Origin: a virus
Taxonomy: Duplodnaviria > Caudoviricetes
Direction: 5' to 3' (one strand)
Length of the DNA: 30,993 nt
Virus record (IMG/VR): IMGVR_UViG_3300037070_004496
Location: 1-30,993 of that record
The translations under genes and the position numbers were made by a program. Positions 1 to 30,993 of the stretch are shown one piece after another (positions within the stretch are counted from its first letter, which is position 1; every line of letters begins with the position of its first letter). The notes beneath the pieces were generated by a model. That model saw nothing but the letters and a program-made list of their open reading frames with translations, did no database searches and was not told where the DNA came from.

Positions 1-453
1 CTCCTGGGCATGCAGCCAGAAACTATAGTTGGTTACCACCACCCGGGCGTACTTGGCCCGACGTAACGCATCATAGTAGTGGCAGCCATGATGCTTCAGC
101 AGACACTGGACACCCAGGTGGCAGATGCCCTGCTCCACCGTGACCGGATTCGGGGCCTCCAGCTCGCAGAGGTAATTGCTCTGACCCCGCACGTCCACCA
201 CCATCTCCCGGAAGTCGCCGCTCCGGGTGTGGGCTAATTGGTCCTGGAGTCCACGGGCCGATGTAAGCACGCATACTCGGTCGGGCTCGGCCAGCGCAGC
301 CAGGGCCATGTAGACCAGGCTCTTGCCGCTGCCCGTGGGCATGTTCAGGACCACGAAACGGCTGTCCTGCTCGGCGGCCCAAATCAGTGCATCCAGCTGG
401 TTGTGTCTCCAGTCCACGAATCGGGGCGGGAGCCCCAGGTGCTGCGGCTTCAC
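1..453 (-). CDS. DinG/YoaA/XPD-family SF2 helicase with Fe-S domain, N-terminal part (runs off the window edge; not in the ORF track)
   Basis: Manual translation from GTG at 453: MKPQHLGLPPRFVDWRHNQ...VVLNMPTGSGKSLVY...LQDQL...RGQSNYLCE...GICHLGVQCLLKHHGCHYYDALRRAKYARVVVTNYSFWL. It shows the Q-motif, Walker A, the NYLC motif, four Cys and the VVVTNY motif typical of DinG/Rad3. GGAGGAGG lies just upstream. Confidence 0.85.
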   Translation of the reverse strand, partial: MKPQHLGLPPRFVDWRHNQLDALIWAAEQDSRFVVLNMPTGSGKSLVYMALAALAEPDRVCVLTSARGLQDQLAHTRSGDFREMVVDVRGQSNYLCELEAPNPVTVEQGICHLGVQCLLKHHGCHYYDALRRAKYARVVVTNYSFWLHAQE

Positions 454-566
454 TTCCTCCTCCACAGCCACAGGAGCACGCAGCCCCCAGGCAAAAGAAG
501 CCCGGCAGCGAGCAGGATGAGCAGGACGATGCGGCCCGCTTCCGCGAGCCAGGCCGCCTCCTTCAT
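450..566 (-). CDS. Small membrane protein (38 aa)
   Basis: MKEAAWLAEAGRIVLLILLAAGLLLPGGCVLLWLWRRK; hydrophobic, and its stop overlaps the helicase GTG (GTGA). Confidence 0.5.
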   Translation of the reverse strand: MKEAAWLAEAGRIVLLILLAAGLLLPGGCVLLWLWRRK

Positions 567-588
567 CCAGTCGTGCCGGGCCACAGGG

Positions 589-1182
589 TCACTGCTTCTT
601 CGCTGCGCGGCGGGCGGCCCGCTCCTTGTTCAGACGGGCGGCCTTCTCGTTTCGCTTGTGGAGCCACTTCGTCTTCTTGCTGCCACCCTTCTTCTTCGTC
701 GCCTGCACCTTCGTGTCGTGGGCATCCACCACGGCCTTCAGCGCAGCCGTCGTCTTCAGGCTACGTCGCACGGGCTCGGGCAGCTCGTCCCAGGCCAGGT
801 CCCCGTTCACCACCATCTTGAGGGAACCGATGTAACGACCGTAATGCCCGCGCAGGAACTTCCGGTTCAGGTTCTGGACCGGCTCGTTGCAGGACCCGCA
901 CGCGCAGAGCGGGATGAAACGCTGCTTGGCCTCGGAGAGTGGAGCCACCCGCTTCAGCACGCGCTCGTGCTTCCGCTTCTTGATCGCAGCCTCACGGATC
1001 GCGCGCCGCTTCGCCTTCTTCCGGACAGGCTTGCCCTCCTCGCGGGCCTCGGCCACCTTCCGCTGAAGGGCCTTCACTGCGGCCGGAACCACCCTCATCT
1101 TCGCCTTCGGGGGTGCGGGCTTCGTGGGCAGCGGGCTGTCGTCCGGGTCCGTCTGCTTCTTCACACTCAGGGACATCGCCAT
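589..1182 (-). CDS. Very basic K/R/A-rich protein with a CACGxC...RKFLRGH Zn-binding-like motif; putative DNA-binding protein
   Basis: ORF track 197 aa; GGAGGA RBS; K/A-rich N- and C-terminal tails flank CACGSCNEPVQNLNRKFLRGH. Confidence 0.65.
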   Translation of the reverse strand: MAMSLSVKKQTDPDDSPLPTKPAPPKAKMRVVPAAVKALQRKVAEAREEGKPVRKKAKRRAIREAAIKKRKHERVLKRVAPLSEAKQRFIPLCACGSCNEPVQNLNRKFLRGHYGRYIGSLKMVVNGDLAWDELPEPVRRSLKTTAALKAVVDAHDTKVQATKKKGGSKKTKWLHKRNEKAARLNKERAARRAAKKQ

Positions 1183-1185
1183 GAT

Positions 1186-1545
1186 CTAGTCCTCCACCGG
1201 AGGCCAGTAAGCCACGATAGGTGGCCACAGCCTGACGGTACGAGACATTACCACACTATCGCTCGTTACGTCAACCAGGGGCCAAAACGGTATCGGGCGC
1301 TTACCCCGCTCCAGGCGCAGCACCCGGGTCCCGGGGCTCCAGTCCATGAAGGTGTTCTGGCTGGCAACGAAGTCCCGTCCCCCGAAGGTCACCCGCGTGG
1401 TCCCTCGGGACATCTTGACGTGAGCCCGGCAGGGGGTAATCCGCACTACCTGGGCACGCAGCTCGGTGCCCACGACGCGCACTACGTCCCCAGGCAGACA
1501 GTCTCGGATGTAACGTGGCATTACTTCAACTTGCCAGTGGCGCAT
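1186..1545 (-). CDS. Hypothetical protein (start may be ATG at 1521)
   Basis: Tiles between minus-strand neighbours. Confidence 0.55.
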   Translation of the reverse strand: MRHWQVEVMPRYIRDCLPGDVVRVVGTELRAQVVRITPCRAHVKMSRGTTRVTFGGRDFVASQNTFMDWSPGTRVLRLERGKRPIPFWPLVDVTSDSVVMSRTVRLWPPIVAYWPPVED

Positions 1546-1649
1546 GACAACTGGGTGCTGTCATGCGCCACCAGGCAATGGGATCTACTTCTTCCGCTTG
1601 GTAGCGTACGAGGCACTGTGCCTGAGCACGGACACGGATGCCTTCGATG

Positions 1650-2432
1650 CTACCTTCGGTCTTTTGGGGACGGAGCGTCCGGCAACGTGTTGTCGGGACG
1701 AGCGCCCGAACCGGGCAGCGTGTTGTCCACGCCCGGCTGGGAACCCGGCAACGAGTTGTCCGGCCGCGCACCCGAACCGGGCAGGGTGTTGTCCGGTCTC
1801 GGGTCACCGGGCTTCCAACCCGACCCGGGCAGCGTGTTGTCGATGCCCGCGCCACCGCTCGGCAGCGAGTTGTCCGGCCTCGACCCATCGCCCGGCAACG
1901 AAGGCAGCGAGTTGTCGATGGTCGGAGGCGTACCGGTGGCCGCACCCGAGGGGGTCAGCACGATGCCCGCCGTCTGCGCCTCGTCACGCACGACGGTGAT
2001 GACGGTGGTGGCGACCACCAGCCGTTCCTCGCCCGCGTCCAGGTCCCCGTCGCCTTCGACCTTGAGATCGCAGGAGTGTGCGGAGCCTTCCACGTCGTCA
2101 CCCATCGGCGCGGGGGTGATCGTCGCGTGGAACGGGTCCGCGTCGTCCACCTTGAGGATGCCGACCGCGTTACCTGCGGGCGAGGACGTGAGGCCCCAAC
2201 GAGGCTTCCCGTCGATCTTGGCGGGCGTTACCCCGTCGGCCTTGAAGAACGTTACATGCGCTTCGAGTCCCGGAGAGGATTCTGTCATCTCGGCCATGCT
2301 CTTACTCCCATACTCGGGCCAGAAGGTAATCTGCCCGAGCGAAAGACGAATCACTGGTAGCGCACACTCCACGGACTCGCCGTGGCAGCAGGGGTTCACG
2401 ACTACAACTGTCCGGCAACTGCGATGAGCCAT
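1650..2432 (-). CDS. Hypothetical protein: beta-rich domain followed by a Pro/Gly tail with seven DN[ST]LP repeats
   Basis: GGGAGGGAG RBS before 2432; alternative start at 2298; repeats visible in the translation. Confidence 0.7.
   Translation of the reverse strand: MAHRSCRTVVVVNPCCHGESVECALPVIRLSLGQITFWPEYGSKSMAEMTESSPGLEAHVTFFKADGVTPAKIDGKPRWGLTSSPAGNAVGILKVDDADPFHATITPAPMGDDVEGSAHSCDLKVEGDGDLDAGEERLVVATTVITVVRDEAQTAGIVLTPSGAATGTPPTIDNSLPSLPGDGSRPDNSLPSGGAGIDNTLPGSGWKPGDPRPDNTLPGSGARPDNSLPGSQPGVDNTLPGSGARPDNTLPDAPSPKDRR
1680..1920 (-). repeat. Coding imperfect tandem repeat, (R)PDN[ST]LPGSG-like units, seven copies
   Basis: Recurrent GGCAGCG(T/A)GTTGTC / GGCAACG(T/A)GTTGTC on the plus strand. 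Confidence 0.85.
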
Positions 2433-2470
2433 ACGTTACTCCCTCCCGAAACGGACTCATAGTACTTCCG

Positions 2471-2710
2471 TCACCGTCGCCTCGGTTGAGCCATCGGCAC
2501 CTTGGTCGGGATCATGGGAAGCGTCCCCTCGTGGAGCGCGAGCAGAGCGAGGACGCCCGTGACCAGGCACGCGATGACCAGCATGCCCCACGGCAGGAAC
2601 ACGAAGAACACCCGCCACCGGTACCGCCACAGCTCCCGACGATAGATCCGCTCCTGCTGGTCACGCTCCCGCTGCTCCTCGGCCTTCGCGTTAACCAGCT
2701 TGTCCGTCAC
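2471..2710 (-). CDS. Small membrane protein
   Basis: GTG at 2710 overlaps the upstream stop; hydrophobic segment VFFVFLPWGMLVIACLVTGVLALLAL. Confidence 0.6.
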   Translation of the reverse strand: MTDKLVNAKAEEQRERDQQERIYRRELWRYRWRVFFVFLPWGMLVIACLVTGVLALLALHEGTLPMIPTKVPMAQPRRR

Positions 2711-2901
2711 GGGCGCTCGTCCCAATCGATGCACTCGGGGCACCAGCGAAAGACGAACCAGTGGAGCAGCCGCCGCCACCAGGACCGGCGTCGTAGCTCG
2801 TCCTGGTGCTCAATTGCAGCCTTTCGCCTAACCCACATCGGCTCGGGCTCATCGTGGAGGCGTTCCCACAGGGGGTCATCCTCGTCCAGCATCACCGGCA
2901 T
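2707..2901 (-). CDS. Small hypothetical protein (Trp-rich, C-terminal CxxC)
   Basis: MPVMLDEDDPLWERL...WCPECIDWDERP; coupled to neighbours. Confidence 0.55.
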   Translation of the reverse strand: MPVMLDEDDPLWERLHDEPEPMWVRRKAAIEHQDELRRRSWWRRLLHWFVFRWCPECIDWDERP

Positions 2902-3203
2902 GCTCTCAGCCTGAGTCCCCAGTAAACGAGCGTTACCAGGAATGCTGTGGCCCCGAGCAGCAACCGACGCACGATGTCCCCAGCCTTCTCGTCGCACCGC
3001 AGGTCGGCCAGGTCCATCGGGCTGATGTCGCCAGCATCGGGATTGTCCGTGAAGATCACGCCGTGGTGCCTGTGCTTCACTCCCTTGTGCTTCTTCCACT
3101 CACCGGCGAGATACCCCTCGGCCCGTGACGCGGAGTCGGTCCGGAGCACCTCGATTGCGGCACCGTCCAGTACCGTGTAGACAGTGAACTTCCCTTTGCT
3201 CAT
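2892..3203 (-). CDS. Hypothetical protein with C-terminal membrane anchor
   Basis: MSKGKFTVYTV...LLLGATAFLVTLVYWGL; ATGA overlap with the upstream ORF. Confidence 0.6.
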   Translation of the reverse strand: MSKGKFTVYTVLDGAAIEVLRTDSASRAEGYLAGEWKKHKGVKHRHHGVIFTDNPDAGDISPMDLADLRCDEKAGDIVRRLLLGATAFLVTLVYWGLRLRACR

Positions 3204-3343
3204 CGGTCCCACCTCGGGTACACCTTCCACCAGTCGGGGCGCTGCTTGTAGTAGCTCAGGAAGTGCAGGACCATCCACACATCCCAGATCACGTACGCCA
3301 GCAGCAGCAGCATCGGCCCAAAGAACAGCACTTGCTCCCTCAT
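3200..3343 (-). CDS. Small membrane protein (47 aa)
   Basis: Manual translation MREQVLFFGPMLLLLAYVIWDVWMVLHFLSYYKQRPDWWKVYPRWDR; the stop overlaps the next ATG. Confidence 0.55.
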   Translation of the reverse strand: MREQVLFFGPMLLLLAYVIWDVWMVLHFLSYYKQRPDWWKVYPRWDR

Positions 3344-3368
3344 CGGCCAGGTCCAGCCCGGCCCGGGA

Positions 3369-3995
3369 TCAGTCACCGATTACCTCGGCCAGGCACGCCT
3401 GCCAACGGGCCGACTCCTCGTCGTCCTCACTGGCCAGCCAGTAACGCTGGATTACCTTGCACACACGAGCCTTCTCAGCTTCCACGTCGTGCTGGCCCTG
3501 GCTCACCACAGGAGCGAATCCCAGCCGAGTGTCCGCAGGCAGGGTAAAGAGCGGTACCGCTTGCCCGCCCCCTGAATCGGCATTCAGGATCTCATCGATG
3601 CGCTTGATGGCACCGGCCCGCATGAGGGGGTTCGCGCTCGTCGCGGCTTCCACCAGCAGCTGAGCCCTGGCTCCCGGAGGCAACAGCTCCCGTAGGCTCT
3701 CCTGGTAGTCGTCGGCTTCGTCCCGCAGGATGGCAGCATGGCCAGCGGGGTCTCTCCTACGACGTGGGGACTTTGCGGCCGGGGGGGTTGAGGTGTCCGT
3801 AGCTGGGGGCTTCGCGGGGGGAGGCGTAGACCCGAGCCCCGAAACCCGCGAGCGGTCCAATGGGTCCAGAGCTAGCGCCCGGAGGACAGTCTCCAGCCCC
3901 TTCCCCTCCTGGAACAGAGTGCGCGCCTGATCGATGCAGCTGCGTCTCTCCTCCGGAGTTAGCTTGTACCAACGCCGCAGCTTCAGCACGGTCAC
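3369..3995 (-). CDS. Hypothetical helical protein; possible N-terminal HTH / displaced terminase small subunit
   Basis: 208 aa ORF with a helical N-terminal domain, Pro-rich linker and helical C-terminal domain. The function is inferred only. Confidence 0.5.
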   Translation of the reverse strand: MTVLKLRRWYKLTPEERRSCIDQARTLFQEGKGLETVLRALALDPLDRSRVSGLGSTPPPAKPPATDTSTPPAAKSPRRRRDPAGHAAILRDEADDYQESLRELLPPGARAQLLVEAATSANPLMRAGAIKRIDEILNADSGGGQAVPLFTLPADTRLGFAPVVSQGQHDVEAEKARVCKVIQRYWLASEDDEESARWQACLAEVIGD

Positions 3996-4073
3996 ACTCC
4001 CACAGGAATTCCGCGTCCTCGGCCACCAGCCTGACCCCCTTGCGCTGGAGCCCGTACAGCACCTCGCTGCGGG

Positions 4074-4169
4074 TCACGGCTTCTTCCTCCGCTGGGTACC
4101 CCACACGATGGCCAGGGTAACGAGGAATAGGACCACCAGCTCAGCCGCCCCGAACAGGACCCACTTCAT
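4074..4169 (-). CDS. Small membrane peptide (31 aa)
   Basis: MKWVLFGAAELVVLFLVTLAIVWGTQRRKKP; ATGA-coupled to 4166..4501. Confidence 0.5.
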   Translation of the reverse strand: MKWVLFGAAELVVLFLVTLAIVWGTQRRKKP

Positions 4170-4501
4170 GGCCAGTCCCTATGGATCGTTACCCCGTTAC
4201 CTGCGTGGTAACAAACCTCGATGCTGTTCGCACAGGACACCTTCTCGATCAGGTGCTCGGCCAGGCTGAGCGTGCTGGGCATCGGGTACCAGTGCTTCAC
4301 ATCGTTCTCGGCTTTCTCCACCAGCTCCCGCGCTTCCTGCCCACTGGCCACGCCCCCGTGCTCCGGACTGCTCTCGATCCAGTAGCGGATGGTATAGACC
4401 CATAGCTTCGTGGTAACGCGATATTCCACCACGCGCGTGCGCTGGACGACGTGGACGATCTTGACCGGGTTCTCACTGACCAACTTGATCTCGTCGGCCA
4501 T
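4166..4501 (-). CDS. Hypothetical protein
   Basis: 111 aa, translationally coupled (TGATG). Confidence 0.65.
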   Translation of the reverse strand: MADEIKLVSENPVKIVHVVQRTRVVEYRVTTKLWVYTIRYWIESSPEHGGVASGQEARELVEKAENDVKHWYPMPSTLSLAEHLIEKVSCANSIEVCYHAGNGVTIHRDWP

Positions 4502-4752
4502 CAGTGGCCCGGAACGAACAGCGTCCGGTCCTCCCCGGTGGCCAGCAACCTGCCCACACGCTCCCGAATCACGGCAGCGGCAGCGATCAGCGACACGCCC
4601 AGCTGGTCCATCTCGTGGGGCTCAATCGCAACGGTCATCTTCCGCGTCTTCGTGGCCAGGGTGAAGGCCACACAGTGGCTCCCGTCCTTGCGGCGCGGGT
4701 CGGGAACCTCGGCGATCTCCAGGTTGAAGTGCTCCATTTGGGGTATCGGCAA
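4501..4752 (-). CDS. Hypothetical protein
   Basis: 83 aa, tiles in the operon. Confidence 0.6.
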   Translation of the reverse strand: MPIPQMEHFNLEIAEVPDPRRKDGSHCVAFTLATKTRKMTVAIEPHEMDQLGVSLIAAAAVIRERVGRLLATGEDRTLFVPGH

Positions 4753-4941
4753 TTACACGCCCTCCAGGTTGTCGGTCACGAACTCCACGCGCACCTTGCC
4801 GTCCGTGTCACGGCAACGCTCGTGCTTCCAGAATACATGCTCACCCTGCTCGATCTCCAGGCCACATTGGCAGCAGACGAACTTGACCCGCACGGGCTTC
4901 AGGCAGTTGGTTACTCGCATACGGGGCCGAGGCTCACTCAC
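4753..4941 (-). CDS. Small Zn-ribbon-like protein
   Basis: CCQCGLEIEQGE...HERC; GTGA overlap with the HTH gene stop; GGAGG RBS. Confidence 0.6.
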   Translation of the reverse strand: MSEPRPRMRVTNCLKPVRVKFVCCQCGLEIEQGEHVFWKHERCRDTDGKVRVEFVTDNLEGV

Positions 4942-5375
4942 TTTGGGTAACCTCCGGTACCCGAACGACGAGCCTCCTTCCCTGCCTTCTTCTTCAGACG
5001 CTTGCCCAGGTTGCTCCCTGCCTTCAGGATGCTGGCCAACCTTTCGACCGTTACCCCCAGGAACCCCGCAATCCGGAGCGCACTGGTCAGGCTCATGCCC
5101 TGCTTCCCGGAAAAGATCCGGCTGATCTGGGCGTGGGCAATCTGGGTGCCCCGCGCGACATCGCCATTGGTCAGCCCCTGCGCCTCCAGGATCTCTTGCA
5201 ATCGGGGCAAGGTGGCCTTCACCACACGGGACCCGTCCCAGCTGCCCGGCTTCAGCGGCGCGGGGTCGGCCTCGCGTGCGCGGCCGGGGCTTGTGCTTCT
5301 GGATTGAGGACTGAGGCTTCTGGATTGAGGGCTGGAGTCGGGGCTTGTGGATCGAGGCTCTGATTCAGGTTTCAC
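4938..5375 (-). CDS. Cro/C1 (XRE)-type helix-turn-helix transcriptional regulator
   Basis: RLQEILEAQGLTNGDVARGTQIAHAQISRIFSGKQGMSLTSALRIAGFLGVTVERL matches the XRE HTH pattern; Ser/Pro-repeat N-terminus and basic C-terminus. Confidence 0.85.
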   Translation of the reverse strand: MKPESEPRSTSPDSSPQSRSLSPQSRSTSPGRAREADPAPLKPGSWDGSRVVKATLPRLQEILEAQGLTNGDVARGTQIAHAQISRIFSGKQGMSLTSALRIAGFLGVTVERLASILKAGSNLGKRLKKKAGKEARRSGTGGYPK

Positions 5376-5434
5376 GGGGCTAAAGGCTCCATTCCGGATT
5401 CTGTTTCCTGTACTAGATAACAGGACCGGGTGAC

Positions 5435-5464
5435 ACCCTACTACACCCTCCTTGCACCTGTCAA
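5435..5464 (-). promoter_or_regulatory. Sigma70-like promoter upstream of the HTH gene
   Basis: Minus strand TTGACA (5464-5459), 18 bp spacer, TAGGGT (5440-5435), in an intergenic gap. Confidence 0.55.
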
Positions 5465-5483
5465 CCCCAAAAGGGAGCCCCTC

Positions 5484-5669
5484 TCACCTCCTGGTAACAC
5501 CTCCCGAACCAATGGCAATGCGGAGCACCAGCCAGACCAAGGAACCCATCACCCAAATCACTGTGTAACCTCCAATAGAATGCAACCACAAGAGAACCAG
5601 AAACAGGAGTAAACCCCAAATAAGTCCACCCTCAGGAGCCAATCCCGAAAAGGACTTCACAGGTATCAC
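5484..5669 (-). CDS. Small two-TM membrane protein
   Basis: 61 aa with two hydrophobic stretches; AAGGAG RBS-like sequence. Confidence 0.55.
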   Translation of the reverse strand: MIPVKSFSGLAPEGGLIWGLLLFLVLLWLHSIGGYTVIWVMGSLVWLVLRIAIGSGGVTRR

Positions 5670-5902
5670 TCCTTACACACGGGGCAGGTACCATAGCACA
5701 CAGAGCCCCGCCCGTTGTCCAGGCAAACCCCGTCCTGGAGGTAAGCGTCCAAAGCCCCGGCCAGCTTCACGGCGGCCCGGAGCACGGGACCCCGATCAAA
5801 GGCTTGAATGGCGGTCTCCACCAGCCTGCGGCGCTCCAGCACCTTGCCCCGAATGTCGCTCAGATGAGCACTATTGCGGCCAGGATCAGCCATTTCTTCC
5901 AC
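5666..5902 (-). CDS. Hypothetical protein with C-terminal Cys cluster
   Basis: 78 aa ending CLDNGRGSVCYGTCPVCKE. Confidence 0.5.
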   Translation of the reverse strand: MEEMADPGRNSAHLSDIRGKVLERRRLVETAIQAFDRGPVLRAAVKLAGALDAYLQDGVCLDNGRGSVCYGTCPVCKE

Positions 5903-6345
5903 CCCCGCCCCTTCTTCACAGGCTGATGCGCGTCTGCCCTAGCGGACGTTACCGCATTGGCCATGCATGCCTTGTGTTGAGCATCCAATTCCGGAGCATC
6001 GTGAACGTTGAACCTAAACACTTGATGCCCAAGTCGGACATGGCACACCTCGTGGAGTGCCCACCGGGATAGCTCCTGATTGTCCGCCTTGCCTATCCGG
6101 CGAGGGTCCACCCTGATCTGAGCCCGGCCCGCGACGTTGCTGTCAGGCTCCGTCTGGGCGATCGTGTTGCGGGCGAACCCGGCCGGGATCATGTGCTCAC
6201 TGGTGAAGACTCGGGGGAAGTCGCTGGGGGTCCGCAGCTGTCCCCAAGGGACCCCAACCCGAAGGCTCCATGCCTGTACGTAGTTCTCGAAACGTTGCGT
6301 GGGGCTGGCCGCTGCCAGCACGACTAGACCGATTGCGGGTAACAT
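5860..6345 (-). CDS. Putative exported/membrane-anchored zinc metallopeptidase (HExxHxxxGH)
   Basis: N-terminal signal-like MLPAIGLVVLAAA, motif ALHEVCHVRLGH, C-terminal KKWLILAAIVLI anchor; GAGGAGGAG RBS. Confidence 0.7.
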   Translation of the reverse strand: MLPAIGLVVLAAASPTQRFENYVQAWSLRVGVPWGQLRTPSDFPRVFTSEHMIPAGFARNTIAQTEPDSNVAGRAQIRVDPRRIGKADNQELSRWALHEVCHVRLGHQVFRFNVHDAPELDAQHKACMANAVTSARADAHQPVKKGRGWKKWLILAAIVLI

Positions 6346-6348
6346 GAC

Positions 6349-6525
6349 TTACTCCTCCTCACCCTCAGACGAATAGATGGTTGACGGGTCCTGTCGCTCC
6401 TCCTCCCAATGCCGGATCGTGTGCTTCGCAACGTGGGCTAGGCACACGTCCTCCTTGCACTCCCAGCAATTGTACTCAGGACGTTCACAGGAGCATTCAA
6501 TGCAGACGGTTCGCATCAGTAGCAT
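6349..6525 (-). CDS. Small B-box-like Zn-finger protein
   Basis: CIECSC...CWECKEDVCLAHVAKH; start reassigned to ATG 6525 (RBS GAGAGGGGA). Confidence 0.6.
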   Translation of the reverse strand: MLLMRTVCIECSCERPEYNCWECKEDVCLAHVAKHTIRHWEEERQDPSTIYSSEGEEE

Positions 6526-6692
6526 TCCCCTCTCTTGCCTAGCTTCTCCCCAGCACGGAGGATGCGGGGCGGTCCTGTACGGAACGTTACATCGATCTTG
6601 ACACGCGCTGCCGCGATAGCGGCATCCTCCGCACTGGCGCAGTGCAGGACCACGAACCAACACGATCCGTGCTTCTCCGTTGCATTCTCCAT
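6516..6692 (-). CDS. Small hypothetical protein
   Basis: MENATEKHGSCWFVV...; AAGGGAG RBS before ATG 6692. Confidence 0.55.
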   Translation of the reverse strand: MENATEKHGSCWFVVLHCASAEDAAIAAARVKIDVTFRTGPPRILRAGEKLGKRGECY

Positions 6693-6712
6693 TGGCCTAC
6701 TCCCTTTCGTAT

Positions 6713-6898
6713 TCACCTTGCTCCACAGGATTGGCACGGACGTGCCGAATTGGTGGTAGCAGCCTGCCCAGCCTCGCTCCGTGTCTTGTAACTGATAGTA
6801 CCTCCCGCGTCGCAGGTAGCGCACACGACGCGCCAATCCCCCGGACGTAACTCACCATAGGCACGGGTCCCGACCGCTGAACGTTGATTCAGTCTCAT
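6713..6898 (-). CDS. Small Zn-ribbon protein
   Basis: CATC...CQSC pair; GAGGGAG RBS. Confidence 0.6.
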   Translation of the reverse strand: MRLNQRSAVGTRAYGELRPGDWRVVCATCDAGGTISYKTRSEAGQAATTNSARPCQSCGAR

Positions 6899-6901
6899 TG
6901 G

Positions 6902-7132
6902 CTACTCCCTCTCGTATTCTGCCTTACGGGACAGGGGGCCGGGGCGATGCGTGGCAGCGTACCGCTCACAGATGGAGCGAGCCTCGGCCTCCGTGCAACC
7001 CCGGGCAAGGGTGGTTTTCCTGCCCCCGGAGTTAGGCACCAAACTACGGAAACCCCCCACGAACTGGCTACCCTGCCAGCGGTACCAATTCCGGACGAAT
7101 ACCCGATACGATACTGCGCTACCCTGTTCCAT
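6902..7132 (-). CDS. Hypothetical early protein
   Basis: 76 aa; GGAGGA RBS. Confidence 0.6.
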   Translation of the reverse strand: MEQGSAVSYRVFVRNWYRWQGSQFVGGFRSLVPNSGGRKTTLARGCTEAEARSICERYAATHRPGPLSRKAEYERE

Positions 7133-7143
7133 TCTATCCTCCG

Positions 7144-7350
7144 TTACCCTTCAATGGGTGGCAGAACGGGAAACCACGACGCGAAAGGCTCGATAGCGGA
7201 CGCGTGCTCTGTGTTGTAGTGGAAACAGTAGTTGTCGTCCGGTAAAGGCTCGAAACGGAATGCGGCCGACCGTTCCAGGAATGCAGCAAGCACTTCGCGT
7301 GCCCCGTCCTCCCCACCAATGACAATGCTAGAGTCGAATTGCTTATCCAT
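7144..7350 (-). CDS. Hypothetical early protein
   Basis: 68 aa; AGGAGG RBS. Confidence 0.6.
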   Translation of the reverse strand: MDKQFDSSIVIGGEDGAREVLAAFLERSAAFRFEPLPDDNYCFHYNTEHASAIEPFASWFPVLPPIEG

Positions 7351-7422
7351 GACTTTCTATCCTCCTATAGACAGTTACCCTAATGCGACCCATGCAGAGC
7401 ACGGGCCGGATAGAGCAACCCT

Positions 7423-7869
7423 CTAACGTGCCCAGCCCGACTCCGGGCATCGGCACACCTCGGCCGCCATCATCGGCATGTAGGCCGACCCAACGTTACG
7501 CATGCCAGAGGCTGGAAAGTTGGCCTCGAAATGCTCCGAGCCTGCCCATTTGGCCATCGCCGTGGTGAAGACAGCATCGGGGTTGCGGCGGTAGACCGCG
7601 CGGAAGAAGTCACGGAACCCGTGCCAGCAAACGGCGTTTACCCGACTCGTGTCGCGTGTCGCATTGGCGGACGTGCGCTGATACCGCAGGTCCCCAGCCT
7701 CGCCCGCGCGGCGGTTTCCCTTGGGGGTGAAGGCATCGGGGTTGCTACCCCGGTCGGGGTTCACCTTGACACGGTGGCGCATGGCGGACAGTGAGCGGAT
7801 ATCGAGCGATACCCCGACCTCACGAGCAGCGGACAGTAGGACCTCGGCAGAGACCTTGCTAGCAATCAT
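7423..7869 (-). CDS. Hypothetical early protein
   Basis: 148 aa; GGAGGT RBS; conserved-looking AVCWHGFRDFF segment. Confidence 0.7.
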   Translation of the reverse strand: MIASKVSAEVLLSAAREVGVSLDIRSLSAMRHRVKVNPDRGSNPDAFTPKGNRRAGEAGDLRYQRTSANATRDTSRVNAVCWHGFRDFFRAVYRRNPDAVFTTAMAKWAGSEHFEANFPASGMRNVGSAYMPMMAAEVCRCPESGWAR

Positions 7870-7895
7870 GACATACCTCCATCACAGGTAACGGC

Positions 7896-7924
7896 ACGTT
7901 ACCCTAATGGGACCTATGAGTCAA
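7896..7924 (-). promoter_or_regulatory. Sigma70-like promoter whose -10 lies within a GTAAC-N5-GTTAC palindrome
   Basis: TTGACT (7924-7919), 17 bp, TAACGT (7901-7896); palindrome at 7888-7902. Confidence 0.55.
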
Positions 7925-7962
7925 TACCTGACTCACGGGTCCGGTTAGGCCAACGGGTAAGG

Positions 7963-8373
7963 CTACTTACATCGGGTAACGCGCGCATACATCCCGGGTC
8001 CGGGCGAGGTGCCATAGTAGCGGGCTCCCGTCCGGGGCGAGACCGCGCGGAAGTAGTAGCGGAACGGGGCGCGCTGCCAGCCGAAGGCACGCCCGACGCG
8101 GGCCGTACGCACACGCCAGACAGTCAGCACCTCACCCCCCGTCCAGGACGTGAGGCTATAGGGGACCGTGAGATTCGTGCCCGCTGGCCCACGGAGATAG
8201 AGGACAGTCTTACCCCCGGGGGGTAGCGCGTCCACGTCCGCCCGCTCGCGCACGTCCGCGCACGGGTAACAGACGGTAGCATCGGCAGGCTCACGGAGAC
8301 GCGCGTAGCCTGTGCCCCCAGTGTGCCCCGGGGGGGTCGGCGGGATACCGGCTTTGCAGTCGTGGCAAGTCAT
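7963..8373 (-). CDS. Hypothetical protein with N-terminal Zn-binding CxxC pair
   Basis: MTCHDC...VCYPCA; ATGA-coupled start at 8373. Confidence 0.65.
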   Translation of the reverse strand: MTCHDCKAGIPPTPPGHTGGTGYARLREPADATVCYPCADVRERADVDALPPGGKTVLYLRGPAGTNLTVPYSLTSWTGGEVLTVWRVRTARVGRAFGWQRAPFRYYFRAVSPRTGARYYGTSPGPGMYARVTRCK

Positions 8374-8669
8374 CGGCGGCCCCCGCGAATGACGTAGGCG
8401 CGCACGCAAGCACGAGAGCACGCGGTCTCGTTGCTATCGGCCGGGGTGAAAGGCTTGCCGCAACCAAGGCACGCGCGAGGCTCCAACGTGGGAAACATAA
8501 ACGACAGGTCGGCCACGGGAACCGCGAAAGTGTAGTCGGTCCCGTTAGCGCGAATGATGGCGCTAGCGGTCCCCATGTAGCGCACGAAGGTGCCCGCGAT
8601 GAGTGAGTCTCTGTCCTCGAAGCGTACGCGGTCTCCACGTTTGAACGTGGCCACGGTAGGCTTATCCAT
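8370..8669 (-). CDS. Hypothetical protein: SH3/KOW-like N-terminus plus CxxC...CSxxC Zn finger
   Basis: FKRGDRVRF...CLGCGKPFTP...ACSRAC; GGAGAG RBS. Confidence 0.65.
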   Translation of the reverse strand: MDKPTVATFKRGDRVRFEDRDSLIAGTFVRYMGTASAIIRANGTDYTFAVPVADLSFMFPTLEPRACLGCGKPFTPADSNETACSRACVRAYVIRGGRR

Positions 8670-8711
8670 TTGTACTCTCCGTTACCCGAGCCTGTTAGTA
8701 GACTCGCCACA

Positions 8712-8738
8712 AGGGGGGCAGGGTGACTGCCCCCCCTG
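8712..8738 (-). terminator. GC-rich hairpin downstream of DUF932 (terminator or processing site)
   Basis: AGGGGGGCAG-ggtga-CTGCCCCCC stem; only a weak U-tract. Confidence 0.45.
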
Positions 8739-8749
8739 GGACTAGCCTG

Positions 8750-9769
8750 CTATGCGACCGCCGCGACCGTCTGCATCGCCACGCGGAGAGCCCGCGCGTT
8801 CACGTCCGCCCCGCTGCCAAACCACGCCGAATTCATGCGCTTGTCGGCCGAGACCTTGCTGTCATCCGTGCCCCAGGAGATACGCTCCGTGACACCGTTA
8901 TAGGCGTCCCAGAACGACGCGCCCGTGTTGCCGCGCCCGCGCTGAGCCTTCGTTACCACGTCGGCCAGAATGCCCGCCATGCGCCCGGAAACGCTCTTTG
9001 CGGTGTCCTGTCCGATGATGTTTCCGAAACGGGCCGCCGTGGCAGACTCGGCCACGGGGGTTTCGTCGGTTACCTGGTAGACCGCCTTAGCGTAAGCCTC
9101 GATACCCTCACGATCGATGCTCGCCTTAGCTAGCAAACGGTACACCTCGGCCGTTTTGGTGAAAGCCTCGTTAGCCTTTGCGAGAGACTCGCGCACGGCC
9201 GTGAGACGCGCGCCCGCGCTGGCCGTGTGCTTGACCTTAAACATGCTCCGATCGGCCAGCGCCATTGACAGGGTGTTGCGGCAAACCACGCGCACGGGGG
9301 TGAGCCCGCCATTGTGCGCCATGCTAGCGTCGTGGGAGGACGCGAACAGGAGAAACTTGACAACCTTGTCACCCGGGCGAATCTCCATCATGGCATTACC
9401 CTTGCTGCCAATCTGAGCGAGGACCCACGTCCGCGAGCCTCCCGCGAGGCTCCCGGCCGTATGATAGGTTACCTCGCCCGACTCCAGGAACGGGTTGAAC
9501 CAATCGAGGTTTTCCCGATTCTGGCGGACCGTGTACGCGGGGCCGACCGTTCCCAGGATGCGACCGTCTGAGTCACGACGGGTTGCGTAAGCCTCCGTTA
9601 CATCCTGCCGGTCGGCGGTCACCAGGGGCACCTTGGAAACCGTCCAGTCAAGGCCCGACTGGCGGATCATTTCGTCGGTGGACGTGAGCGCTGCATCCGT
9701 CATGCGGACGCCTAGCCCGTGCCATGGGACATCCGCCGTGTAAGCCATCGTCTCGATATCGTGTGCCAT
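8750..9769 (-). CDS. DUF932-domain protein (phage/plasmid-like protein, TIGR03299 type)
   Basis: MAHDIETMAY...PWHGLG...GLDWTV...TAGSLAGG...WVLA...SSHD...TPVRVVCRNTL...WDAYNGVTE are hallmark motifs of the family. Confidence 0.9.
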   Translation of the reverse strand: MAHDIETMAYTADVPWHGLGVRMTDAALTSTDEMIRQSGLDWTVSKVPLVTADRQDVTEAYATRRDSDGRILGTVGPAYTVRQNRENLDWFNPFLESGEVTYHTAGSLAGGSRTWVLAQIGSKGNAMMEIRPGDKVVKFLLFASSHDASMAHNGGLTPVRVVCRNTLSMALADRSMFKVKHTASAGARLTAVRESLAKANEAFTKTAEVYRLLAKASIDREGIEAYAKAVYQVTDETPVAESATAARFGNIIGQDTAKSVSGRMAGILADVVTKAQRGRGNTGASFWDAYNGVTERISWGTDDSKVSADKRMNSAWFGSGADVNARALRVAMQTVAAVA

Positions 9770-9817
9770 TTGTCCTAACCCTCTTTCTTATCGTGCGGTA
9801 ATGCACGTTACCTAACC

Positions 9818-9846
9818 AATGTAGGCATTCGGCCGCCGCCTGTCAA
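9818..9846 (-). promoter_or_regulatory. Near-consensus sigma70 promoter driving the early (leftward) arm
   Basis: TTGACA (9846-9841), 17 bp, TACATT (9823-9818); GTAATGCACGTTAC at 9798-9811 covers the predicted start site. Confidence 0.75.
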
Positions 9847-10304
9847 GTAGAAAGTACAGGCTATTATTCCAATTGCTTGTAACGCGCGTTACGGGTAATT
9901 GGATCGGGGGTATAAGTCATTACACTATCCTTTCGCTTTACCCCCCGTAAGTGTAGATAATCCCATTTTCGTGAAATTGGCTAGGTTCAACGCTACGGTA
10001 ACGGGTGATACCTCGGGCTAGGGTTTGGGACAAGTCTTCACCACGAGCCTTCCAGGGCCCTTAAACGGGAATTACCTTTTTGGTAAGGATCAGTAACTTA
10101 CGGGGATTGCGCCCGCGTCGGGTCGGGAGCGTGTATAGATATGATGGGAGGTAACTGCAATTACCGTACCGTCATTTGAAGGCTTGGATACTGCATGCAA
10201 TCAGTGTGCCACGTTACCTCGCCTGTCACCAGGGGGGCAGGGGGCAGGAGGGGTAACGCATGACGCTAGGGTATGGGCGATGCACGCGCGCCTTGCTCTC
10301 TGTA

Positions 10305-10399
10305 CTACCTACCAGTCGGTAGGCTACCGACCACCCGGTAGGTTACCAACCGTTCGGTAGGCTACCGATCGGTCGGGTGGTTATGACCAGTTAGTATAG
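10305..10399. repeat. Tandem array of 19-bp internally palindromic units (four clear copies and one degenerate)
   Basis: CTACCTACCAGTCGGTAGG / CTACCGACCACCCGGTAGG / TTACCAACCGTTCGGTAGG / CTACCGATCGGTCGGGTGG / TTATGACCAGTTAGTATAG. Confidence 0.85.
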
Positions 10400-10660
10400 T
10401 TCTTTGTATACCTACCCAGACCCCCCCGGCACCCCCCCAAACCAGGGTCCCCCGGCGCAGGATAAGGGACCCCCTGAACAGCAGACAGCTCCCCGGCCTC
10501 TGGGCGAGGTAACGCGCGACAGGTCCCGCTCGTGGTCTGTGGAAACACTGGAGGACCCAGTGCCCTAAATGGGGGTACGGTAACGCCTGTTACCCCTTTT
10601 CGGGATCTGCTTCTGCCTCTGGTATGAGAGCATTACCCTCATACCACAACCCGAAGCGAT

Positions 10661-10772
10661 GTAATGGCTGTTACTCTTTCCAGAAAAGGGGGGCTGGGGG
10701 TACCCTCCCTTACCCCAAGCAGGGGTAATGATCGTTACTCTTTCCAGAAAAGGGGGCTCATTCCAGAAAAGG
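10661..10772. repeat. ~34-bp direct repeat x2 plus a partial third copy
   Basis: GTAATG(gct/atc)GTTACTCTTTCCAGAAAAGGGGG at 10661 and 10725; TTCCAGAAAAGG at 10761. Confidence 0.85.
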
Positions 10773-10922
10773 ACCCGGGGGGAGGACCCCTGCGCCGGTT
10801 TTCCCCCGGGTCGGCTCGGGTTACCTCATCGATCACCCCCCCACACCCCCCCAGCCTTCAGGGGAACATGCCCCGAAGGGGCAGGTTCCCTATAGGTAGT
10901 GCCCTCACGCGCCGGGTGGCTG

Positions 10923-10973
10923 AGGGTACCACCTTTTTCGGGACTTGTCAAGTATCATTATTTAGTATAGGGT
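10923..10973. promoter_or_regulatory. Overlapping divergent sigma70-like promoters sharing one -35 region
   Basis: Plus: TTGTCA (10945-50), 17 bp, TAGGGT (10968-73) toward terL. Minus: TTGACA (10951-46), 17 bp, TACCCT (10928-23) into the non-coding region. Confidence 0.55.
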
Positions 10974-11058
10974 CCAGGGCTGTGCCACTACCAGTAGTAG
11001 TACCCTCATTCCAGGGTTCCATGTCTCAGTTCAGAAGCACAAGCCCCCGGAGCACGCG

Positions 11059-16282: not shown

Positions 16283-17350
16283 GTGCCGAGTCCTTCTTCT
16301 TTGACGCTCAATTACGATGCTCTGCTCTCCACCACCCTGTTCAATTACAGGAAGACGCTGGAGGACAACATCTCCACCGGGAATGCATTCTTCTGGTGGC
16401 TCAAGAACAAGCGGGAGCGTGGGTACAAGGGTGTGGACAACATCGGGGAGAGGATTCAGATTCCCTTGATGTACGAGCTGGGTCGGGCCGACTTCTACAG
16501 TGGCTACGATCTGCTCGACACCACGCCGATGGACGGGATCACGTCCGCCTTCTACGACTGGCGGCAGATGGCGGTGCCCATCTCCATCAGCCGCAAGGAG
16601 GAGCGCCAGAACAGCAACGAGGCCCAGATCATCGACCTGCTGGAGAGCAAGATCGAGCAGGCCGAGCTGGGCATCCAGGAGCTGTTCGGGAAGGCTCTGC
16701 TCCAGGGCAACCTGCCCACGGGCGGGTCTCCTATCGTCCCTTACGTGTCGGCCGCGAACGGCGCGTCCGGTTTCGATCCGCTGGGCAAGGCTGTGACCCC
16801 CGATCCCACGGCGGCGCTCACGTACGGCAACATCGCCCAGAACACCTACACCTGGTGGAGAAACCAGTTCAAGAGCTTCACCGGCATCACCACGAATGCG
16901 GCGTACCGCACGGCGCTCACGAACCTCTACAACAACTGCTCCAAGGGTCCCGGGGGACCGCCCGACTTCGCTCTCTGCGACCAGGGCACCTACGAGCAGT
17001 ACGAGACCTACCTGGCCAGCTACCACCGTAACCCCGATTACGGCAAGGCCGACATCCCCTTCGAGAACATCAAGTTCAAGGGGTCCACGATCATGTGGGA
17101 CGAGTTCATCGCCGACTACTCGACGCCGGGCGCGATGACCACGAACAAGGGGTGCCTGTTCTTCCTGAACATGAAGTTCTGGGAGATGCGGTACGACAAG
17201 CAGACCAACTTCATCAGCGATCCGTTCCAGCGGCCCGTCAACCAGGACGCGAAGACCAGCCACATCCTCTGGTTGGGGGCGGCCTGCACCAGCAACCGGC
17301 GCAAGCACGGCATCGGGTTCAACATCCCGAAGGACACGGTTCTCACCTAG
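16283..17350 (+). CDS. Major capsid protein (HK97 fold inferred)
   Basis: 355 aa after the scaffold; GERIQIPLMY, YSGYDLLD, FENIKFKG and CTSNRRKHG motifs; highly biased codons; AGGAG RBS. Confidence 0.9.
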   Translation: MPSPSSLTLNYDALLSTTLFNYRKTLEDNISTGNAFFWWLKNKRERGYKGVDNIGERIQIPLMYELGRADFYSGYDLLDTTPMDGITSAFYDWRQMAVPISISRKEERQNSNEAQIIDLLESKIEQAELGIQELFGKALLQGNLPTGGSPIVPYVSAANGASGFDPLGKAVTPDPTAALTYGNIAQNTYTWWRNQFKSFTGITTNAAYRTALTNLYNNCSKGPGGPPDFALCDQGTYEQYETYLASYHRNPDYGKADIPFENIKFKGSTIMWDEFIADYSTPGAMTTNKGCLFFLNMKFWEMRYDKQTNFISDPFQRPVNQDAKTSHILWLGAACTSNRRKHGIGFNIPKDTVLT

Positions 17351-19881: not shown

Positions 19882-19909
19882 ACGACGTTACAACAGAAGG
19901 GAGGCAGTT

Positions 19910-20224
19910 ATGGCAGCAGCGACGAAGAAGGTCAAGAAGAAGGTTCGCGGGTACAACGAGCACGGCAAGGTGGTGGTGGAGGAGGTGGAAGCCGAGGCCC
20001 AGCTGGTCCTCGCCCAGACGGGGCTCCAGGAGGTGGAGGAGGGTTTCATCCTGGTGACCGCAATCAACGAGGACGGGACCGTGGACGGGTTCACGTTCTT
20101 CCAGAGCGACGGGGACGTTCGGGTGGTCCGTGGCTACACCCCGGACGCCCCCCCTCCCCCCGAAGCCGATGTCGAGACGGCCAGGGGGTCTCGCAAGGAG
20201 CCGGATCGCAAGGAGTCCCGGTGA
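19910..20224 (+). CDS. Hypothetical protein
   Basis: 104 aa; GGGAGG RBS. Confidence 0.7.
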   Translation: MAAATKKVKKKVRGYNEHGKVVVEEVEAEAQLVLAQTGLQEVEEGFILVTAINEDGTVDGFTFFQSDGDVRVVRGYTPDAPPPPEADVETARGSRKEPDRKESR

Positions 20225-20883: not shown

Positions 20884-21041
20884 GCCACCGCGTTCTCCAT
20901 CGGGACGTGGAGGAAAGTCTCCACAACGATGTAACAGAGCATTACGTTGCAGAGCACTCGCATCCTGCGGGGGGCCAGGTCCCGAATCACCAGGACCACC
21001 AGGAACCAGCAGAGATCCTGTGCGATGACAGCGGGGATCAT
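20856..21041 (-). CDS. Small hydrophobic protein (second gene of an antisense moron)
   Basis: MIPAVIAQDLCWFLVVLVI...; ATGA-coupled to 21038..21229. Confidence 0.5.
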   Translation of the reverse strand: MIPAVIAQDLCWFLVVLVIRDLAPRRMRVLCNVMLCYIVVETFLHVPMENAVAHAALSLGF

Positions 21042-21229
21042 CGGCTGTACTTCCAGAAGCAGCCGAGGAAGACGGCGGGCGCGCCGAGCAAGGCCACCAC
21101 GTCGAAGACCCTCTCCAGCTCGTGGGAGCCACCAGCGGCACCCCCCATGAACAAGGTCCAGAAGAAGAACCAAACGACCGTTACAAACCAGGCGACTCCG
21201 AACCCGAATACGACGTTCTTCAGCTTCAT
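21038..21229 (-). CDS. Small two-TM membrane protein (antisense moron)
   Basis: MKLKNVVFGFGVAWFVTVVWFFFWTLFMGG...VVALLGAPAVFLGCFWKYSR; own promoter immediately upstream. Confidence 0.7.
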   Translation of the reverse strand: MKLKNVVFGFGVAWFVTVVWFFFWTLFMGGAAGGSHELERVFDVVALLGAPAVFLGCFWKYSR

Positions 21230-21237
21230 AGTAAGAG

Positions 21238-21266
21238 ACGTTACCACATCAGTGCGTACGTGTCAA
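21238..21266 (-). promoter_or_regulatory. Sigma70-like promoter for the antisense moron, overlapped by GTAA-N6-TTAC
   Basis: TTGACA (21266-61), 17 bp, TAACGT (21243-38); palindrome GTAAGAGACGTTAC at 21231-21244; ATG at 21229 (near-leaderless). Confidence 0.7.
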
Positions 21267-30200: not shown

Positions 30201-30311
30201 GCGGAGTCCACTGCGGACAACCACGCGATGGAGATGTACTGGGCCGAGATCGCGTTCACGATCAGCGGCAACGAGGACGACAACACGCACCAAAAGAGCC
30301 TGCCCCTATGA
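27252..30311 (+). CDS. Large tail structural protein (tail tubular B / nozzle / stabilization-protein-like)
   Basis: 1019 aa beta-rich; LRPGTRKL near the N-terminus, YRWDGTTLRSWGIIAP, LKYS and LFVGT propeller-like motifs; position after adaptors. Confidence 0.7.
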   Translation: MPEVLQKYKDWQSDWEEDQAPDDVLLRSDNVVADAQGARILRPGTRKLGSALAGPIQDVFTHQLAGGKQRMVAAGNKFYVNGSEKATLADPTKDPARDAFMDSMFIARGGDKYRWDGTTLRSWGIIAPSPPVVDGAGVKSGSISTFDAAETPAWLAKEGTIANCNDSEGNGNEAKQVALAKTFRSTIMRTIASGYWNYSTPNNYQEDSADLIGFSIYISDAANAKDVTLMFGMTAGADPFKTDRYEFALGINGVPLQDIPGAMPSIGNKLSLFAVPMGYKYDAAAKAKTTTVQTVTDPSIKPGSTGDEGWNTIAIPRGAFKRVGANAGLGWSTIRAVKLVFQAKKAGGIVRYDDLRIISGGTSFFGTYRIRLRRARDANGWVELSPASSESASVFLSLQNATAVIPSSELVGSTNALTGWTDYWVYMQGGALDQYYKVGEFSALGAGDGMRIDEFSRTSSNTPGLSKRERTRFVDVGFSGPGLPVEGNPTDGLVATIAGNEADILIRNQYLDNFEVPDGNMIDCDNFLSRMLELTATHLKYSPIGMPSVFYTDFAIEVGSPSEVPYWIRRTRNALFVGTSKDIIRVSGTGQVDGTTGLVDFTAARLNLGKPPIGPDVTVDGNTIFYRAEEGWMLFDGETAVPLDKGNNTLLWRGFTRQGILPVAIGGRHRAAVNDGFFYSITPHGTFSGGSTAESRDIGMRLDEFSARPDNSFSAAERSRWVNVGFTIPSGGDSNVIWRNRIGTAQWDRMVMPVAMRAIFVEPDGTLVAGGVDGYVYSLLHPDRADHTEAQAGQGVNLDTPILVTLHTPAIMPNMFGRCDLNEVQAYVKSDSGCSPVLGGGGLYVDGQLRESFGLCGPGGFGFYRRQFLDTIFRSAQLKFSVTARQYSLKGIRLNYQLRPPSQVCYDSGLILPTKDNDLVALDEFRMLSRLFAPCYVRLYLNDEILGQDQLITPEDSGLRPYKARYPRNAKGYATRVVVYSGVAESTADNHAMEMYWAEIAFTISGNEDDNTHQKSLPL

Positions 30312-30993
30312 CCCGACAGATGCCAGCCAAGCTGGAGCTAATCAGCATCCAGACCGCGATCCGCAACATCTGGGCCGAGCTGGATGGTAAGGTAGGTTAC
30401 AAGGCCGGGGGCCGCCAGGTCACCAACGCGCACCCCGCAACCACCGGCTCCGGGCTCGTCACCCTGTCCCAGCTCACCGATCTGCTGGGGAAGAAGAAGG
30501 AGATCGCGGGCGGCGGATTCGAGTACCTGTTTCATCGGTTCGAGGCGTACTTGGTCGGGGAGTCGCCGCCCCTCATCCCCACCCCCAGTGGTGTCTGCTG
30601 GTTCGACACGATCATGTCCGGAGACAACTTCGATGAGGTGGCCTTCACCAACGCCTTGACCTGTGAGCGGGCCGGACGTTACCTCTATTACATCATGGTG
30701 ACCCTGTACCCCAACAACGATCCCAGCGTGCTCGGGGACTACGTTGCGATGGTCGTCAACGAGGATGGTGTGCCGGTCATGGAGGGCGGCACCGAAACGG
30801 AGCACTGGAGGCGTTACTTCCCGGTGACAGCCGGGAACGGGGTGGTCCAGGCCCACTTCTGTGGGGTCCTCGACATGGAGGAGGGTGGTACGATCACCCT
30901 GCCCATAGGGTGCAATAGCCCGTCCACCGACTACAACCAGGTGTCGGGGTACAACCACAACAGGGCGATCCTGGTTGACCTGACGAGGAGCAT
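30308..30993 (+). CDS. Putative tail protein with a C1q/TNF-like beta domain (partial; not in the ORF track)
   Basis: ATGA-coupled start; open to the window end: MTRQMPAKLELISIQTAIRNIWAEL...FDTIMSGDNFD...TCERAGRYLYYIMVT...GVLDMEEGGTITL. Confidence 0.7.
   Translation, partial: MTRQMPAKLELISIQTAIRNIWAELDGKVGYKAGGRQVTNAHPATTGSGLVTLSQLTDLLGKKKEIAGGGFEYLFHRFEAYLVGESPPLIPTPSGVCWFDTIMSGDNFDEVAFTNALTCERAGRYLYYIMVTLYPNNDPSVLGDYVAMVVNEDGVPVMEGGTETEHWRRYFPVTAGNGVVQAHFCGVLDMEEGGTITLPIGCNSPSTDYNQVSGYNHNRAILVDLTRS

Follow-up and report, generated by a model that had tools for sequence, protein, structure and literature searches.

What reads a short, spaced DNA word that recurs all along a phage genome, and what does such an array do there? 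The question is raised by a stretch of 30,993 nucleotides (IMG/VR record IMGVR_UViG_3300037070_004496; the whole stretch is called the window below) from an uncultured soil phage. Its GC content is 62.6%, close to the ~63% estimated in the original prediction, a reading of the letters alone that had reported 20 exact copies of GTAA-N6-TTAC and 115 half-sites. A recount gave the same figures (20 copies, and 53 GTAAC plus 62 GTTAC), and all 21 GTA-N8-TAC and all eight CTAT/CTAG coordinates named there bear the site. The reported total of about 48 GTA-N8-TAC was too low, the recount being 52 (20 + 32). Half-site counts lead one to expect 0.35 GTAA-N6-TTAC and 4.4 GTA-N8-TAC in the window. The autocorrelation of TA with TA revealed a single peak of 114 at a lag of 10, compared to 17-38 at the other lags from 2 to 60, with none at 20 or 30. 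Synonymous codons were then shuffled in 69 genes (300 shuffles each, three schemes), and the enrichment persisted under this control, by which the original prediction had proposed to judge it. Within genes, GTAA-N6-TTAC was observed 14 times against a mean of 0.3-0.7 (maximum 3), GTA-N8-TAC 53 times against 6.1-8.4 (maximum 18) and TA-N8-TA 111 times against 23.5-30.4 (maximum 50). Half of the GTA valine codons (56 of 112) fall in sites.

The array continues beyond the window. An IMG/VR contig, L007, overlaps both window ends at 100% identity (405 and 3,188 bp), and its positions 406-15029 add 14,624 bp to give a closed circle of 45,617 bp. The added part has 44 TA-N8-TA and 24 GTA-N8-TAC, and the circle holds 76 GTA-N8-TAC. 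With a 12-bit weight matrix and a cut-off of 10 bits, the main spacer gave 157 matches and the spacer longer by one base 32, compared to 3-14 at other spacers and 4 in the reversed sequence. A regular-expression count found 94 + 38 sites, with 113 at the main spacer and 1-5 at control spacers. The sites in the window are as follows, and with 51 further weight-matrix sites in L007:406-15029 they make up a working set of ~176 in the circle.

23..30691, unstranded: array of GTAA-N7-TAS / GTAA-N8-TAC (S, G or C), 125 weight-matrix sites.

The density is thus about one site per 260 bp, not one per 0.6 kb as first proposed. The array is real, under selection and unusually dense. That it is a compositional or assembly artefact, a codon effect, a repeat or an RNA hairpin has a practically nil probability: the shuffles, the autocorrelation and the reversed-sequence control (4 against 157) rule this out, as do conservation in a related contig (see below), spacer sequences that are distinct in 51 of 52 sites, and a sequence identical across one IMG/VR contig and contigs from three soil metagenome runs, which may be its source. 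The one point in its favour is that 12 of 93 sites of the (G/C)TA-N8-TA(G/C) or a related type touch gene boundaries, TAA or TAG stops supplying a half at nine boundary sites.

The form of the site narrows what could read it. As a true palindrome, the motif GTAAC-N4-GTTAC of the original prediction did not hold up, with only four exact copies in the window and five in the circle. The site instead pairs a complete GTAA half with a less strict (G/C)TA half, in either orientation, and has the short form GTAA-N7-TAS. At least one GTAA half is present in 126 of 158 TA-N8-TA pairs, compared to 6 at control lags, and an asymmetric model beats a symmetric one by 76 log units. A longer class has one extra spacer base; the window has 10 such sites of the form GTAA-N7-TTAC. 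The motif is a graded one in which further positions have preferred bases, and the base before GTA is G in 61% and T in 19%, the latter near background. The 10-mer GTAAAGAGCG is shared by four sites (3544, 14388, 27663 and 29733) and one 14-mer is identical at 10700 and 15207, which hints at spacer preferences beyond the matrix.

Neither orientation is preferred. The strong half comes first in 56 sites and second in 48; along the circle 49 sites are forward, 51 reverse and 26 both, with balanced counts per arm. Strand alternation was considered and rejected (45 switches in 99, 50 expected), and there is no helical phasing between neighbouring sites (Rayleigh Z at most 1.45). Self-complementarity of the halves does not exceed chance. 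Since the halves lack excess complementarity, orientation is free and the codon shuffle was survived, the site is one on double-stranded DNA rather than an RNA hairpin, in agreement with the original prediction. Very probably, then, a protein binds the sites on double-stranded DNA, contacting halves one helical turn apart.

The same prediction had favoured a dimeric protein. Under an additive symmetric model, double departures should fall within one half as often as they are split across the halves; we counted 34 and 4. Control spacers in the same genome lean likewise (12 against 3), inflated by the array's own GTAA words; with a neutral ratio of 1.5-1.6, taken from 21 GC-rich related loci and from this genome with paired TA masked, P is ~1e-4. 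A strictly additive homodimer is therefore not supported. This result bears on one phage protein in particular.

4938..5375, minus strand: XRE/Cro-type helix-turn-helix (HTH) gene (PF01381, E 1.6e-8); its promoter (-35 at 5464-5459) is siteless.

As reader, this protein would act as a genome-wide repressor. It is the sole phage protein of a recognised DNA-binding family, carries a net charge of +14 and has a homologue at 79% identity; the sites here, 14 bp in a 4-N6-4 arrangement, share their geometry with the 434 repressor site. Besides the departures just described, which speak against a simple additive homodimer, the absence of any site over its promoter or within 130 bp upstream makes this role distinctly unlikely, and HTH_3 genes are found in 6 of 27 array-free relatives, though these are not close homologues.

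The two-part layout also invites comparison with type I restriction-modification. Type IC sites such as that of EcoR124II have a 3-N7-4 layout, and this family varies its spacer by one base. The form STA-N7-TTAC fits that layout and the site is asymmetric, so the word could be a methylation target kept as a protective self mark; the fixed sequence and single spacer of type I sites are not shared. We regard this as highly improbable. The motif is graded rather than all-or-none, its two spacer lengths coexist and interconvert, and no DNA methyltransferase or HsdS family was matched among the scanned open reading frames (ORFs) of the circle. The phage also avoids 6-bp palindromes: all 16 listed as most depleted have 0-1 copies in the window against 6.7-14.7 expected. 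GCCGGC, GGATCC and CACGTG are each absent from the window, with ~11 expected.

The sites lie in coding and non-coding DNA, as originally noted: of the 176, 139 (79%) are wholly inside genes, 24 are intergenic (10.7 expected) and 13 are on gene ends. A density of one per ~260 bp, paid in codon choice across nearly all genes, suggests an action along the whole DNA and not at promoters alone. Outside 5.4-11.1 kb, the gaps are under-dispersed (coefficient of variation 0.80-0.83, P 0.003-0.02 at four thresholds), with a mode at 200-300 bp and fewer gaps below 100 bp than expected. On each strand taken separately, spacing is irregular (coefficients of variation 0.89 and 0.95, P 0.2 and 0.43).

Orientation-free, fairly even, genome-wide sites might also serve DNA transactions, namely packaging self-recognition, a binding ratchet during DNA entry, or replication restart or priming. 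PolA, helicase and SSB-like genes are present. No small terminase gene was found adjoining the large one and no primase family was matched among 67 ORFs of the circle, nor was a primase found by a Prim-Pol search; two sites in the control region each stand at the head of a direct repeat. One protein could be placed in such a role.

3369..3989, minus strand: helical protein of 206 amino acids, possibly a displaced small terminase (a guess from gene layout).

No homologue of it was found, its Atlas matches being without names, and its structure model has a pLDDT (predicted local distance difference test score) of 50.6. One pac site is enough for packaging, a priming map predicts a regularity per strand that is not observed, and the operators on -10 boxes described next would be left unexplained. 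We consider a role in DNA transactions quite improbable.

To relate the array to transcription, we located promoters by pattern search and compared them with the weight-matrix sites. The features concerned are listed here.

1207..1304, unstranded: four sites (1207, 1238, 1256 and 1290) over the sigma70-like promoter adjoining the basic-protein gene.
-35 1274-1269, -10 1250-1245, minus strand: basic-protein promoter, sigma70-like pattern.
7888..7990, unstranded: highest-scoring site (7888-7902, 20.4 bits), which covers the -10 of a minus-strand promoter with its -35 at 7924-7919.
7914, 7957 and 7976, unstranded: companion weight-matrix sites near the promoter with -35 at 7924-7919.
9798..9846, minus strand: leftward early promoter (-35 9846-9841, -10 9823-9818).
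9798-9811, unstranded: 19.3-bit site covering the predicted transcription start of the leftward early promoter.
9770..11058, unstranded: non-coding control region, 13 weight-matrix sites.
10945..10973, plus strand: putative promoter for late genes (TTGTCA-17-TAGGGT), located 5' of the terminase gene; its function is predicted from sequence.
21231..21266, minus strand: late-arm antisense promoter of sigma70-like pattern, its -10 covered by a site.

The search gave eight sigma70-like promoters. In four of them the centre of a site falls between -6.5 and +6.5; a fifth has a sub-threshold site only. No site lies over the putative late promoter (10945), its divergent partner or the HTH promoter, and the site nearest to the late promoter is ~100 bp downstream of it. 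Among 25 half-sites able to serve as a -10, three have TTGAC 16-18 nt upstream (0.034 expected). Repressor operators typically sit around -10/+1.

The cluster at 1207-1304 directs attention to the gene that it adjoins and to the ORF beyond.

589..1182, minus strand: basic protein of 197 amino acids (net charge +35, isoelectric point 10.8), candidate reader by predicted binding.
1186..1524, minus strand: ORF upstream of the basic-protein gene; in relatives, its homologue and the basic protein form one fused protein.

Four sites within 130 bp upstream is the highest number for any of 67 genes (Poisson P 0.0006 for one gene), and sites across a gene's own promoter are a signature of autoregulation. 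Of the three candidate readers in the original prediction, the basic protein thus gained support, while the HTH protein and the product of 3369-3995 gained none. The protein is the most basic of the circle, and its gene has a high codon-fit score (0.38 per codon) and a 5-base ribosome-binding site. Lys/Arg/Ala-rich arms flank a putative zinc-finger core, CxCGxC...F..GH.GRY. In eight of eight aligned homologues, C, C, C, H and F/G/R/Y of the motif C-x-C-G-(x)-C...F-x-x-G-H-x-x-R-Y are invariant, and this conserved Cys/His motif suggests that the protein binds zinc. The AlphaFold core is modelled at a pLDDT of 84-96. No solved structural relative was found: the full-model fold search, led by the N-terminal helices, reached a best Z of 5.9 on a helical hairpin, and residues 92-165 gave a Z of 4.8 to two TetR-family proteins, below the bar. 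A single in-frame TAG (1186-1188, minus strand), identical in the main contig of all three metagenome runs, parts the protein from ORF 1186-1524, and most aligned relatives carry an N-terminal domain matching that ORF. Fused homologues keep an internal Met after an acidic stretch resembling a ribosome-binding site, which suggests long and short forms.

Together, these observations lead us to favour, at a probability of about 0.4, a reading in which a phage-made protein, probably 589-1182, coats the genome and shuts early promoters including its own. Its parts differ in strength. The reader is probably encoded by the phage. Its identification with the basic protein, whose amount negative autoregulation would match to the number of sites, is tentative, at somewhat less than even odds. 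The reader would hold two half-sites one turn apart, anchored on GTAA, with the second half needing only TA. Bound at promoters, it would stop transcription from starting at early and middle genes as well as at its own, the late promoter being left free, and the 139 intragenic sites would nucleate a coat about every 260 bp, compacting or shielding the DNA. In its fullest form, which we think doubtful, the reading describes a lytic phage with an address lattice on the scale of nucleosomes, in which its own histone-tailed zinc-finger protein builds sequence-addressed viral chromatin, distinguishing the phage's DNA from the host's without chemical modification, shielding or compacting it and timing the early-to-late switch.

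Several results weigh against a coat made of the basic protein. The four-site cluster has P 0.037 once corrected for 67 genes, and it is evidence that the gene is regulated, but not that its product is the regulator. In three of the five promoter overlaps the -10 is the TA of the site itself, and independent ones number 2 of 6 (P 0.14). The evenness is modest, gaps reach 1,413 bp, and no site lies in the genes for the basic protein, the SSB-like protein and the dUTPase or in 1650-2432. Two capsid-related phages have homologues of the basic protein without an array, namely G170 (61.6 kb; three homologues; helicase, PolA and nuclease genes shared with this phage) and G184 (four homologues): their best spaced motifs reach a log10 P of -9.3 and -7.6, compared to -111 in this phage, and no site cluster was found at the homologue genes (L334-L340). 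Three cultured actinophages with the domain likewise show no comparable array. The helix after GH reads GHD(G/A/S)R in those homologues and GHYGRYIG here and in homologue P0128, a difference that makes a lineage-specific gain of specificity possible. The co-occurrence of array and basic protein rests on one phage, as the nearest relative (L204) stops short of the gene. In one of the domain-bearing phages, Curtobacterium phage Parvaparticeps (L332), a small excess of TTG-N9-CAA was seen (15 against 1.6).

If the reader were not a phage protein, it could be a host CRP/FNR-type regulator or an abundant nucleoid protein, recruited as coat or titrated. GTA-N8-TAC is the NtcA core, GTAA-N6-TTAC has CRP geometry, and one good half-site is common in CRP sites; the core letters and one-turn spacing found here fit such sites. 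The phages that have the basic-protein family and no array also fit this reading, and a Vicinamibacterales genome (G006) has six TGTAAC-N4-GTTAC near genes (L209:5092-12372, L210:8572-8751), an apparent small regulon; five of the six end GTTACA and most lie in AT-rich stretches adjoining genes. Phage phi29 bears sites for host Spo0A (PMC2731898). The base before the core is mostly G, unlike TGTA, the promoter sites are centred within -6.5/+6.5 as for a repressor, not at -41.5, and the sites form a lattice in coding DNA, differing in all three respects from NtcA sites; titration requires neither even spacing nor intragenic sites. No CRP-family gene was found in the phage. Across 151 Acidobacteriota genomes, exact GTAAC-N4-GTTAC occurs just 0-6 times each, where the phage's density would give hundreds. 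The word is thus not a chromosome-wide signature in these genomes, the alternative raised by the original prediction, though none of them is established as the host. Array-like density was also not found in four other genomes, one of them among the 151. A host-directed search with the capsid alignment gave four genome matches, and the terminase had no match in 301 genomes from the class of the Vicinamibacterales genome. We judge a host reader unlikely.

The array was also followed into related phages. The nearest relative, L204, is a 4-kb contig with a capsid at 76% and an aligned identity of 69.5%. It has 10 sites at a relaxed threshold, of which four are at the matching aligned position (chance 0.036 each), one of these with the other spacer length, and six are new; sites are thus both kept and turned over. 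In its codon shuffle, 5 sites were observed against a mean of 0.65 (maximum 3 in 1000 shuffles). One kept site lies in the capsid gene.

17028..17041, unstranded: capsid-gene site spelled by synonymous codons (Arg-Asn-Pro-x-Tyr), kept in L204.

Codons for Arg-Asn-Pro-x-Tyr/Phe spell the site in both array-bearing phages and in none of 16 other loci with those residues. Capsid relatives that are more distant, 27 in all, have 0-20 copies of GTAA-N7-TAS each, in nearly all cases no more than the control, compared to 125 in this phage's 41-kb contig. A spaced-dyad scan of 82 loci found a strong dyad only in this phage (L013); L044, L047 and L060 have a weak matrix excess (best 11 against 2.1) without the TA core pattern and were not counted as arrays. 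Searches of IMG/VR with a three-site pattern (122 loci, 80 with flanks; ~58 of 64 parts scanned) and a perfect 16-mer (116 loci, 80 with flanks) yielded nothing beyond this phage, some tandem repeats and weak signals; such pattern searches are insensitive and hence no proof that other arrays are absent. Scans seeded with the capsid, DUF932, PolA, HTH and basic proteins gave no relative closer than the same phage.

Dispersed phage protein sites are known at 10-35 copies, their role in lytic phages being described as open (PMC4351075, PMC7302621). The closest published system is that of Cluster O mycobacteriophages, with 34 invariant 7-3-7 palindromes, TGTTCGG-N3-CCGAACA, of unknown function, 14 of them intergenic and about a third in genes (PMC4351075). 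Like the present sites, these are dispersed dyads within and between genes, without clear orientation, denser in one gene region, in phages without an integrase, and proposed as protein sites. In contrast, the ~176 sites here, in 45.6 kb, are degenerate and asymmetric, differ in sequence, vary in spacer and are 79% in genes. Cluster A operators and stoperators (L5, TipsytheTRex; PMC9283540) are 20-26 13-mers at promoters and in short intergenic spaces of temperate phages, oriented with transcription; a single protein recognises them through two adjacent major grooves. The array shares with them many asymmetric sites per genome, some on promoters. It is not a stoperator set, the silencing analogy drawn in the original prediction, because the sites are unoriented (56 against 48) and mostly coding (139 of 176); they are also ~7-fold more numerous, and no integrase was matched in the ORF scan.

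For the genome-organising function that we propose, phi29 p6 is the model: it organises the genome and takes part in the early-to-late switch, recognising no specific sequence but a bendability pattern with a 24-bp repeat (PMC10899789). Unlike p6 sites, those here have a defined word, a single TA peak at lag 10 without harmonics and no helical phasing. Microbacterium phages have 5-12 intergenic motifs (PMC7302621). The array differs in defining properties from Cluster O repeats, Cluster A stoperators, Microbacterium motifs and phi29 p6, and no published account of this motif or of an equally dense phage array was found in full-text literature, which leaves most subscription papers outside. The motif is defined, its 176 natural variants are graded and two small candidate proteins can be ranked, so that the function of the array can be tested with synthetic DNA and recombinant protein, without phage culture. 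If the favoured coat reading is true, unmodified phage DNA would be marked as self, and the widespread unnamed CxCGC...GH phage protein family would have its first function.

The remaining genes are those of a tailed phage. On the plus strand, the window encodes the large terminase, portal, capsid, adaptors and tail, the capsid protein having 30% identity to that of Myxococcus phage Mx8; its minus strand encodes DUF932, small genes and the XRE-type HTH. The added 14.6 kb encodes a helicase, a UDG-fused PolA, an ERCC4-type nuclease, a Sak4-like protein and a dUTPase. Integrase and partition families were not matched among the 67 ORFs.

8750..9769, minus strand: DUF932/TIGR03299 gene, first gene of the leftward operon.

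Titles and abstract beginnings in the literature gave no function for DUF932. An ORF of 260 amino acids (1650-2432) has repeated PDNTLPGSG-like motifs and sits in the largest site-free gap. In the control region, a 32-bp direct repeat (10661 and 10725; within 10661-10772) has a site at the head of each copy, and the same interval has three copies of CTC(T/A)TTCCAGAAAAGG. Palindrome-like repeats with a 19-bp period (CTACC...GGTAG, 10306-10381) differ from the main site and may be iterons of an origin or for packaging. Back-to-back sigma70-like promoters lie at both ends of the region (10923-10973 and 9818-9867) and share a near-palindromic -35 region. Inside the late arm, a small antisense membrane-protein-like ORF (21038-21266, minus strand) has its own site-covered promoter. 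Radical SAM/SPASM, glycosyltransferase-like and class I methyltransferase genes (18058-20883; L007:2581-3090) are common to many capsid relatives. Two capsid relatives, L070 and L071, have a marked excess of short palindromes (AGC-N-GCT, 35 against 5.4; TCCGGA and ACCGGT).

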